Below are positions 814 through 61,962 of a stretch of 64,000 bases of DNA, piece by piece. The DNA lies in UHGV virus genome UHGV-1519562; one strand, 5' to 3'. The translations under genes and the position numbers were made by a program. Every line of letters starts with the position of its first letter. Within the stretch, counting starts at the first letter, position 1. The notes beneath the pieces are model-generated. The model saw only the letters and a list, made by a program, of their open reading frames with translations, had not been told where the DNA came from and made no database searches. This stretch comes from a virus.

Positions 814-1100
814 ATTAGATGAGAACTCTAACTGTCTCTGGTGATGGAGCCGCAGGCGACATCGGCTGAGACGACTAAGTGTTACCCCAGAAAATTATAA
901 CCTATGTTATAACTCATCTATTTTTGGTATTTTCTGGATGCATTGGTTTTAAAACCAAGAAGGAGAGGAAATATTAAACAAAAGACTTAGATTATAATAG
1001 ATAGCTTTCATTTAAGGAGAATTTAACCTTTTATCTATACAGATAATTAATTAAGATTGCGGATGTGCGTGTCAGAGCACACAATCTAGCACCGCATGAT
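814..1100 (+). ncRNA. DGR spacer RNA region between TR and RT (structured, GC-rich stems)
   Basis: Nested stems gtctc/gagac and agccg/cggct at about 845-883 and a stem near 1059-1097; no ORF; position matches the DGR RNA that primes cDNA synthesis. Confidence 0.35.
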
Positions 1101-1120
1101 AAAAAAAAGGAGAATTTTTT

Positions 1121-2353
1121 ATAGAAGAAAATCTTTTCCAGCGTTTTTGTAATTTTGACGCTTTTTATGATTCTTCTTATTCTATTTGCCGAAACGTAAG
1201 ATGGAAAGATAGTACAGTTAATTTTGAAGAAAATAGATTAAATAACATCTTAACGCTTAAAGAACAATTAGAAAATGACAGTTATGAACAATTAGTTTTT
1301 AACAGTTTTAGTATAATTGAGCGAGGCAAACCTAGAGATATAAGAGCGTGCCATATTTATGACAGATTGGCACAAAATACATTATGTTCGCAAGTTCTTA
1401 TTCCAGAACTAACTCCAAAATTTATTTATGATAATTGTGCTACATTAAAAGGAAAAGGAATTGATTTTGCTTTGTTAGAAGTGCGTAAACATTTACAAGC
1501 AGCGCACAGGACATACGGCTTAGGAAAACCTTTTTATGGTTTAAGAATTGATATTCAAAAATTTTTTGACTCAATAGACCATAATTCTTTAAAACAAATG
1601 GCAAAACATTATATTAAAGAAAAACGAGTATTTAAATTAATTGATTATATTATTGATACCTTTTGTTTTTCAGTCACAAAAGATACAGTTCCTATTCCTA
1701 ATAAACAATACTATATCATCAAAAAACAAAAATATAAGATAATTTATCCTAAACAATTTTATAAAAATTGTACTTATTATGAATTTAATCATAAAAGTTT
1801 AGGTTTAGGTAGCCAAGCATCTCAATTATTAGCTTTATTGGCATTAAATGGAATTGACCATTATGCAAAAGAGCATTTGCATTTAAAATATTATGGACGT
1901 TATATGGACGATATTTATATTTTGCATAATGATAAAGAGTATTTAAAAGAATGTCTTAATAAAATTGAAAATGAATTAAATAAAATACATTTAAAATGTA
2001 ACAAAAGAAAAACTAAAATAATTAAAATTAGCCCAATAAAACTAGATAAAAATAATTATCCTCATAAAAGACGTTCGGATAAACATAATCCATTTAAATA
2101 TTTAAAATGGGATTTTTATTTAACCAATACTAATAAAATTATTCAAACTCCATTTAAAAAGAAAATAAAACGACAATATAGAAAAATGAGAAAAATGCAC
2201 CAGCTTTGGCTACAAGGTAAAATAACTGATATAGAAATTCAAGAATCTTATCGAGGTTTTAGAGAACATATAAATAAAGGTACTACTTTTTATATTATAC
2301 AAAATCTTGATAATTATTTCCATTCATTATTTAAAGGAGTTGAAATATTATAA
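1121..2353 (+). CDS. DGR reverse transcriptase
   Basis: RT motifs: IERGKPRDI, QKFFDSIDH, LGLGSQASQ (DGR-type SQ motif), YGRYMDDIYI (YxDD). RT-like sequence begins about 1121 but there is no in-frame ATG/GTG/TTG before TTG 1367; start uncertain (AUA at 1121 is 8 nt after AAGGAG). Confidence 0.85.
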   Translation: MEENLFQRFCNFDAFYDSSYSICRNVRWKDSTVNFEENRLNNILTLKEQLENDSYEQLVFNSFSIIERGKPRDIRACHIYDRLAQNTLCSQVLIPELTPKFIYDNCATLKGKGIDFALLEVRKHLQAAHRTYGLGKPFYGLRIDIQKFFDSIDHNSLKQMAKHYIKEKRVFKLIDYIIDTFCFSVTKDTVPIPNKQYYIIKKQKYKIIYPKQFYKNCTYYEFNHKSLGLGSQASQLLALLALNGIDHYAKEHLHLKYYGRYMDDIYILHNDKEYLKECLNKIENELNKIHLKCNKRKTKIIKISPIKLDKNNYPHKRRSDKHNPFKYLKWDFYLTNTNKIIQTPFKKKIKRQYRKMRKMHQLWLQGKITDIEIQESYRGFREHINKGTTFYIIQNLDNYFHSLFKGVEIL

Positions 2354-61382: not shown

Positions 61383-61665
61383 AGGAGATTATAATGGATA
61401 AATGGTATAATATTAATAAATAATTGTTTTTACATAACAGAAAAAGAATTAATTACTAATTATATACATTGGAACTATCATTTTGGTTTTACCATAAATA
61501 TTAATAAGGAGAAAAATATATGAAGAAAATCTTAATTGGACTTGGGATTCACTTATTATTGAACCAATCGCAGTTTTCTGGATATCATATTTCTTTGGCT
61601 GGATTGCTTCTTTTGTAATTGGTAATTCTCTTTGCTACGCCCTAAATGCTGCTTTTACCAAAGAT

Positions 61666-61962
61666 ATGATTCCTCTAATTGCCGGAGCTATTGGTTGGAT
61701 TGCTTCTTATTTTGCAATTTTCATTGGAATCCATAATAAAAAGGACAAAGCTATTAAAACTACTTATGATAATAATAATATAACACAATCTTATTATCTT
61801 GTTTGCCGAAATGGTGATAATAAATATCAATTAGTAGCTATTCCTTGGAGTAGAATTGATAATAGAATTTTTGATTCAGAAGAAGAAGCTTTTAATTATC
61901 TTACGCAAGTACTAATACAGAGAAATTGGGAAACCAATATCTTGGCGAGAACTAGAAGATAA
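61666..61962 (+). CDS. small membrane protein
   Basis: 98 aa with N-terminal TM helix; 61585-61615 is a degenerate duplicate of its 5' end. Confidence 0.45.
   Translation: MIPLIAGAIGWIASYFAIFIGIHNKKDKAIKTTYDNNNITQSYYLVCRNGDNKYQLVAIPWSRIDNRIFDSEEEAFNYLTQVLIQRNWETNILARTRR

Follow-up and report, generated by a model that had tools for sequence, protein, structure and literature searches.

An AUA codon as the probable start of a diversity-generating retroelement reverse transcriptase in an uncultured phage, behind an A-run of variable length

The 64,000-nucleotide stretch of the virus genome UHGV-1519562 analysed here (hereafter the window) begins at position 1 of JGI 3300045988 Ga0495776_163692, a 130-kb sequence from an uncultured phage, and opens on a diversity-generating retroelement (DGR; Table 1). 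The subject of this work is the 5' end of the reverse transcriptase (RT) gene of that element, for which no conventional start codon is found where one would be looked for. A sequence-only reading of this DNA had noted an ATG at 1096, an A8 homopolymer at 1101-1108 that puts this ATG out of frame by one base, an AAGGAG at 1107-1112, an in-frame ATA at 1121 and, as first canonical start in the RT frame, a TTG at 1367 inside the conserved domain; direct reading confirmed all of these positions. The evidence assembled below makes it probable that the RT is translated from the ATA, with the A-run lying in the untranslated leader.

Table 1. Features of the retroelement at the left end of the window, with the basis for each
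Feature	Start	End	Strand	Basis or remark
Invariant 3' end of the variable region (VR) of the DGR target gene	1	14	+	TTACCTCGCGCCCG at 1 and again at 800 (end of the template repeat, TR)
Perfect 10-bp hairpin GCATTGGCCC-TTTT-GGGCCAATGC, 3' of VR	61	84	+	Direct reading
Near-consensus sigma-70-like promoter TTGACT-17-TATAAT with TG extension	148	176	+	11/12 matches; ahead of the open reading frame (ORF) in Avd position
154-aa ORF in Avd position	211	675	+	AAAGGAGG-N9-TTG start
TR	709	813	+	VR/TR mismatch pattern, 10 strains
Non-coding TR-RT spacer, ~280 nt, with blocks kept across lineages	814	1095	+	Ten-lineage sequence comparison
Conserved RNA hairpin closing the spacer	1058	1096	+	Covariation
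ATG, read as a non-start; part of a conserved DNA motif A(T/C)GA(T/C) before the Shine-Dalgarno sequence	1096	1098	+	Relatives' frames; no upstream Shine-Dalgarno sequence
A-run in the 5' leader, A8 here	1101	1108	+	A5/A7/A8/A9 among strains; only AA in relatives
Shine-Dalgarno sequence AAAGGAG (core AAGGAG 1107-1112)	1106	1112	+	Conserved in nearly every lineage
ATA, proposed RT initiation codon, 8 nt past AAGGAG	1121	1123	+	Invariant in 13/13 strains; homologous to relatives' starts
DGR RT coding sequence, 410 codons + TAA	1121	2353	+	RVT_1, phrog_1423
TTG, first canonical start in the RT frame; used by gene callers (328-aa product), read as not the biological start	1367	1369	+	

The target gene itself is cut by the start of the contig, and the window keeps only the last 14 nt of its VR, which are the same 14 nt that close the TR at 800-813. 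The hairpin that lies ~45 nt past the VR end is GC-rich and has a TTTT loop. No terminator-like site was found in 1-2600, which together with the promoter ahead of the Avd-position ORF points to a single Avd-TR-spacer-RT transcript. The product of that ORF had no match in Pfam or PHROG; 145 blocks of the collection have an identical protein. An Rfam search placed the spacer in no family. The spacer contains an AAGGAG at 960 and a second AAGGAGAA at 1014-1021, with no ORF behind either. The latter is part of a block, TTTCATTTAAGGAGAATTTAACC (1004-1027), that is conserved in most of the ten lineages compared below (L120 and L123 have AAGGAAG; labels of this form denote contigs or loci of the strains and relatives compared). 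Because no ORF comes after it, this block is perhaps not a ribosome-binding site but an RNA element belonging to the DGR spacer.

Several observations indicate that the RT is a functional enzyme of the DGR type. Counted from the ATA, residues 69-328 match the Pfam family RVT_1 (E = 6e-15), and the protein matches phrog_1423, 'Reverse transcriptase', with E = 6e-76. An RVT_1 fold, a YMDD sequence and an (I/L)GxxxSQ motif are marks of DGR-type RTs, and direct reading located GRYMDD and LGLGSQASQ in this one. To follow the gene among close relatives, 16 assemblies representing 13 strains, 0.5-5% apart in the flanks, were gathered via identical neighbouring proteins and DNA patterns. The ORF read from the ATA has 410 codons in 12 of the 13 strains, and the thirteenth, which has an A9 run, differs by a T-run indel that affects only the last 6 residues. 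The mean pairwise ratio of nonsynonymous to synonymous divergence (dN/dS) of the RT was 0.067 across the 13 strains and 0.063 among those in which ATG 1096 is out of frame, that is, those without A7. In the A9 strain (L069) the indel consists of T5 in place of T3 at the RT 3' end (equivalent to ~2328-2353); it changes the C-terminal motif SLFKGVEI, otherwise conserved in the family, so that L069 may have a slightly damaged RT or may be an assembly that is error-prone at homopolymers.

Diversification of the VR was followed in ten strains, for which full VRs were taken from the related contigs L063-L073. Of the mismatches between VR and TR, 187 fell on TR adenines and 15 on other bases, most of the latter being 5' indel misalignment in L065 and L069. 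Pairwise, the VRs of the ten contigs differ at 14-41 of 105 nt, against a median difference of 4 for the TR. Each compared strain has a VR of its own, the sole identical pair (L063/L072) being two assemblies of one strain. TR/VR differences are thus adenine-specific and VR diversification is, as judged between strains, ongoing, and by these marks the locus is a DGR and its RT is functional. Three independent contigs (the window, A8; L118, A8; L001, A7) have the invariant 3' end of the VR as their very first bases, which suggests that assemblies break inside the VR owing to its heterogeneity within samples.

The RT frame runs from stop to stop over 1103-2353, a TAA at 1100-1102 sitting in the same frame just upstream. 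It contains no ATG, GTG or TTG before TTG 1367, codon 88 if the count begins with the stop-to-stop frame and codon 83 if it begins with the ATA. A start at this TTG would delete the conserved N-terminus CRNVRWKDS together with the first 14 residues of the RVT_1 match. Moreover, 7 of the 11 variable codons among the 82 that precede TTG 1367 have synonymous changes only, and translation must therefore begin at or near 1121. From the stop at 1100 as far as codon 20, ATA 1121 is the sole near-cognate codon that the RT frame offers, and it stands behind AAGGAG with an 8-nt spacer, AATTTTTT. The ATG at 1096 opens a frame that ends after 18 codons (MIKKRRIFYRRKSFPAFL, then stop), and direct reading found no Shine-Dalgarno sequence upstream of it.

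The AAGGAG at 1107-1112 is the phage's usual ribosome-binding site at its usual spacing, not a chance match, because the hexamer is enriched in the window (58 copies, compared with 31.5 +/- 5.7 in shuffles) and half of the copies are followed, 4-10 nt later (mode 8-9), by an ATG or TTG with which an ORF no shorter than 50 aa begins. Ribosome-binding sites in this phage are of the form AAGGAG or GGAGG. A second apparent AAGGAG-ATA start, at 61516, was rejected: there, a 10-nt deletion in the window throws a normal AAGGAG-N8-ATG out of frame. The gene concerned, a small membrane-protein gene at 61498-61962 (+), is frameshifted in the window, the AAGGAG-N8-ATG at 61520 being out of frame with the long ORF; in the relative L129, 10 extra nt (CTTGCCCTTT) restore the frame, but a separate frame break occurs further downstream.

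Comparison with related phages, a check that the sequence-only reading had itself proposed, bears directly on where the gene begins. Ten RT lineages were compared, with ~52-66% identity to the window's RT among those for which values are listed. All ten retain, at the DNA level, the motif A(T/C)GA(T/C) with a Shine-Dalgarno sequence behind it that in most of them is AAGGAG. The ATG of this motif is in RT frame 0 in two lineages (L039/L083, L044/L088), in frame 1 in one (L103/104) and in frame 2 (L077-82, L085-87, L109/110) or otherwise out of frame (L124-126) in five, and in the remaining two (L120-123) the motif reads ACG and there is no ATG. The codon 5-8 nt past the Shine-Dalgarno sequence, by contrast, is always in the RT frame. 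It is ATG in L077-82 and L103/104, GTG in L124, TTG in L039/L083, L044/L088, L120/123, L121/122 and L125/126, ATT in L085-87, and ATA in 13 of 13 strains of the window's lineage; counted by lineage, the position that holds ATA in the window holds ATG, GTG or TTG in eight and ATT in one. The correspondence is visible base by base in L121, which reads AAGGAG-AAAGTATA-TTG-GAA-GAA-AAT where the window reads AAGGAG-AATTTTTT-ATA-GAA-GAA-AAT.

By this alignment ATA 1121 is directly homologous to the relatives' start position. The length of the N-terminus is in keeping: 21-27 residues precede the invariant CRNV motif in most of the 120 listed family clusters, and in the window there are 22 from the ATA, compared with 30 from ATG 1096. 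The start codon of these RT genes thus lies behind the Shine-Dalgarno sequence while the ATG motif falls in any frame, and comparative sequence evidence identifies ATG 1096 as not being a start codon in this RT family.

Some of the sister lineages have a further peculiarity at the same end of the gene. The RT genes of L088, L120 and L123 have 9 in-frame TAG codons, and 17 of 26 aligned TAG codons in sister-lineage RT genes stand opposite Q in the window's RT, which identifies these lineages (the L088/L044 group, L083, L120 and L123) as TAG-to-Gln recoded phages as judged from the alignment. In some, two or three TAG codons come immediately past the start; the L088 group begins TTG-AGT-TAG-TAG-TAG, and with such a beginning a suppressor tRNA would be required for RT synthesis.

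The length of the A-run differs among the 13 strains, with A5 in three, A7 in four, A8 in five and A9 in one; one of the A7 strains came from a metagenome scan. The window's own strain has A8 in all three of its assemblies (JGI, Logan and ENA). A7 alone puts ATG 1096 in frame, and its frequency of 4/13 is close to the one-third or so expected without constraint. On a neighbour-joining tree of the strains, tract length changed at least seven times and reading frame at least five times. Homopolymers of 6-7 bases within four ORFs, which include three A7 runs (those in the Avd-position ORF among them) and a T7 in a 145-aa gene, are constant in length in all 13 strains. The intergenic runs (A9 at 129, T6 at 676 and the A-run at 1101-1108) vary. 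The A-run behaves as non-coding DNA, because it is the intergenic runs that vary in length and the in-gene runs that do not. It is most likely a harmless, length-variable stretch of untranslated leader, neither a frameshift nor an assembly error.

The base immediately involved in the ATG question is also part of an RNA structure. The outer helix of the hairpin that closes the spacer pairs 1058-1062 (UGCGG) with 1092-1096 (CCGCA), so that pairing ends with the A of ATG 1096. This helix is paired in 100% of cells over 11 distinct sequences, and three of its five pairs have changes on both sides, that is, compensatory ones. The entire hairpin is 93% paired, compared with 20-51% for slid-partner controls, and it has 20 double-change cells against 6.2 in shuffles, none of 500 shuffles reaching 20. 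A single-sequence minimum-free-energy fold of 1040-1135 did not recover the hairpin that has covariation support, and this fold was set aside. In the Bordetella phage DGR, the RNA downstream of the TR serves as primer for cDNA synthesis and is bound by Avd and bRT (PMC6182149; bioRxiv 10.1101/2023.10.23.563531). By analogy, the hairpin at 1058-1096 would be part of the equivalent RNA, and RT-Avd binding may take place at it.

We therefore consider it probable that the RT is translated from ATA 1121 by Shine-Dalgarno-directed initiation, that the A-run is leader and that the weak codon attenuates RT synthesis. The arrangement AAGGAG-N8-ATA without an in-frame ATG, GTG or TTG, at a position homologous to the relatives' starts and with purifying selection from that position onward, is that of a near-cognate AUH start. 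The argument draws on the anatomy of the locus, the polymorphism of the tract, the independence of the ATG motif from reading frame, a start position homologous to that of relatives, an RT under purifying selection and adenine-specific diversification of the VR. AUA would then be the codon actually used, and attenuation would be the likely purpose of using it. The (A)AAGGAG at 1106-1112, 8 nt upstream, would set the 30S subunit and initiator tRNA on the AUA, giving a 410-aa enzyme that begins fMet-Glu-Glu-Asn-Leu-Phe-Gln-Arg-Phe. The weak codon would hold synthesis under the level of an AUG, with low RT as the likely outcome. ATG 1096 is a poor initiation site because it has no Shine-Dalgarno sequence upstream and its A is paired in a covariation-supported helix: this A closes the conserved hairpin with which the DGR spacer RNA ends on its 3' side, and UGAU joins the hairpin to the Shine-Dalgarno sequence. 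The A-run itself would be a lineage-specific expansion of the AA in an ancestral GATAAGGAG, and its length would drift through replication slippage, blind to reading frame because the tract lies in the untranslated leader. It presumably also lets AAAGGAG rather than AAGGAG pair with the Bacillota anti-Shine-Dalgarno sequence, and may shift the ribosome-binding site away from the hairpin.

Several considerations weigh against this interpretation. Initiation at AUA is read from sequence comparison, and the available AUA efficiencies come from S. aureus and E. coli and may not be those of the host. The A7 strains have the ATG in frame, and a minor longer product may be made in them. What the VR diversity attests to is a DGR active in the course of the lineage's history, not in the A8 state specifically, and the invariance of a single codon says little by itself when dS among the strains is ~0.1. 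The sequence-only reading had likewise entertained initiation at AUA, at a very low level; the comparative evidence upholds the codon, and the level seems perhaps too pessimistic, given activities of ~10-30% of AUG at such sites in S. aureus reporters (PMC13009471).

The A-run might instead be non-neutral and tune RT translation by its length, which would set the distance between hairpin and Shine-Dalgarno sequence, extend pairing to AAAGGAG and form, with an invariant U6, an A:U hairpin that holds the AUA. We think this unlikely; if true, the mutagenesis rate of a diversity generator would be under the control of a hypermutable tract that acts as a heritable rheostat, and sister lineages would reach the same end via weak TTG or ATT starts or via TAG codons needing a suppressor tRNA. 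Such an A:U hairpin can be drawn: AU-A(n) and the invariant U6-AU, flanking GGAGAA (1099-1122), could form a weak stem of 8 bp (-1.4 to -2.5 kcal/mol) with each of the tract lengths observed, the Shine-Dalgarno sequence being in the loop and the AU of AUA paired. In the three relatives tested, the corresponding regions have essentially no structure.

The other explanations that we weighed take ATG 1096 as the start codon or the gene as broken. If ATG 1096 were the true start, the A-run would be a hypermutable tract in coding sequence, and RT and DGR would be ON at A7 and OFF at A5, A8 and A9. The differences in tract length between close strains, with at least seven changes among 13, fit such phase variation, as does the 418-aa product (P0001) that A7 yields by restoring an in-frame ATG. 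However, this ATG lacks a Shine-Dalgarno sequence and its A is taken up in the conserved helix; in most related lineages the ATG motif is out of frame or absent and the start is plainly past the Shine-Dalgarno sequence; the ON state is found in just 4 of the 13 strains, the frequency expected without frame constraint; and the RTs of strains without A7 are under equally strong purifying selection (dN/dS 0.063). Homopolymers that mediate phase variation lie inside an ORF or in promoter spacing, whereas this tract lies between a non-start ATG motif and a Shine-Dalgarno sequence, with all three frames populated, and acts like the other intergenic homopolymers. Phase variation is thus distinctly unlikely. 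An assembly or sequencing indel in a genome that is truly A7, another suggestion of the sequence-only reading, deserves almost no credence: a 98%-identical relative does have A7 and an in-frame ATG, but A8 occurs in five distinct strains and in three assemblies of the window's own, A5 and A9 exist too, the different lengths recur in independent assemblies, and the in-gene A7, T7 and other runs of the same contigs are constant in length. The proposal that reads with A7 would reduce the matter to a simple assembly indel was mis-set, since A7 genomes do exist and yet do not make A8 an error, because ATG 1096 is not a start codon.

Recoding would keep the start at ATG 1096 and bring ribosomes into the RT frame by a programmed frameshift (+1 at AAA-AGG for A5 and A8, -1 at A-AAA-AAG for A9) or by slippage of RNA polymerase on the A-run. 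A slippery context can be written for every tract length, and A-runs of 8-9, the length found in the A8 and A9 strains, are known slippage sites. Yet each allele would call for a separate mechanism, transcriptional slippage needs a run longer than A5, and there is no correctly placed stimulator. A conserved slippery site fed by an initiating upstream ORF, as programmed events use, is not what the locus offers: the tract is 5-9 long here and 2 in relatives, and the upstream ORF has no ribosome-binding site, its ATG being base-paired and missing in two lineages. Relatives, without the A-run (2 As) and without an in-frame ATG, still keep the layout of Shine-Dalgarno sequence and start, and selection is purifying in the strains without A7. 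Slippage, raised by the sequence-only reading, is not needed to explain the gene, and recoding is very improbable. Inactivation of the RT by a start-codon or frameshift lesion, which would make the DGR a fossil, is more improbable still. The missing canonical start and the truncated 328- or 371-aa proteins given by gene callers speak for it; against it stand the intact 410-codon ORF in 12 of 13 strains (the thirteenth altered only in its last residues), a dN/dS of ~0.07, the retained catalytic YMDD, the intact TR and a different adenine-mutagenised VR in each strain.

Initiation at AUA has consequences for how such elements are recorded. Protein collections hold this RT gene as 328-, 371-, 418- and 436-aa products, and those of relatives as 387-aa truncations; the nearest protein cluster, that of P0001, contains the 418-, 371- and 328-aa products, and NCBI DAQ93853.1 is the 371-aa form, labelled 'hypothetical protein'. 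These truncated records arise because gene callers ignore ATA and ATT or pass over a TTG adjacent to a Shine-Dalgarno sequence, and DGR surveys built on called proteins may therefore count such elements as defective. Likewise, a homopolymer 'frameshift' beside an ATG can be an artefact of taking that ATG as the start. That members of one RT family start at ATG, GTG, TTG, ATT or ATA, or with a recoded TAG run, hints at selection for a scarce or conditional error-prone RT.

The phage itself has 32% GC, the standard genetic code and a coding density of ~94%. Stop-codon recoding like that of the sister lineages was considered for it and rejected, given this density under the standard code and the lack of in-frame TAG in its RT. 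A blastn search of 1-2700 against cultured and INPHARED phages gave no match, all but one of the 36 loci found by a 15-mer scan of IMG/VR were chance matches, and a scan of a genome-contig collection gave no match, so that neither host nor prophage was found there. No RT of cultured or INPHARED phages exceeds 32% identity to the window's RT. The matches of the latter among cultured phages include phages of Roseburia and Faecalibacterium, and the host is therefore likely, by RT sequence similarity, to belong to the Bacillota.

An AUA start behind a strong Shine-Dalgarno sequence is already known as a kind of translational attenuation; the proposed start of this phage DGR RT would be a new instance, and the short list of natural AUA starts would gain one from a phage. 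E. coli infC starts at AUU. In S. aureus, ribosome profiling mapped AUA starts of infC, ccpN and citZ and an AUU start of cvfC1, all with strong or extended Shine-Dalgarno sequences, and in reporters the ccpN, citZ and cvfC1 sites gave ~10-30% of AUG (PMC13009471); in E. coli, AUA gives 1-2% of AUG (bioRxiv 10.1101/063800). Like the S. aureus sites, the phage RT has a near-cognate AUH codon at optimal spacing behind a strong Shine-Dalgarno sequence, no canonical start and a codon kept among strains, and attenuated translation is expected. It differs in being a phage DGR gene read from sequence, in having no evident feedback logic of the IF3 type and in that the weak codon varies among sister lineages (ATG, GTG, TTG, ATT, ATA) instead of being fixed family-wide.

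The element as a whole resembles the DGR of Bordetella phage BPP-1 (avd-TR-spacer-brt) in its order of target gene with 3' VR, small accessory ORF, TR, structured non-coding spacer and RT, in its adenine-specific VR/TR differences and in a GC-rich invariant VR end followed by a hairpin. This hairpin, at 61-84, is similar in appearance to the target-recognition hairpin downstream of the VR in the Bordetella phage DGR (PMC3240598), a resemblance only. In contrast to BPP-1, the accessory ORF has no detectable homology to Avd, the spacer is ~280 nt long and its terminal hairpin abuts the RT ribosome-binding site. Finally, the A-run shares with homopolymer contingency loci, the phase-variable poly-A and poly-G tracts of bacterial and phage genes, the property of a short tract that changes length repeatedly among close genomes; unlike them, it lies upstream of the start codon, as judged by the comparative evidence, and has no frame preference.

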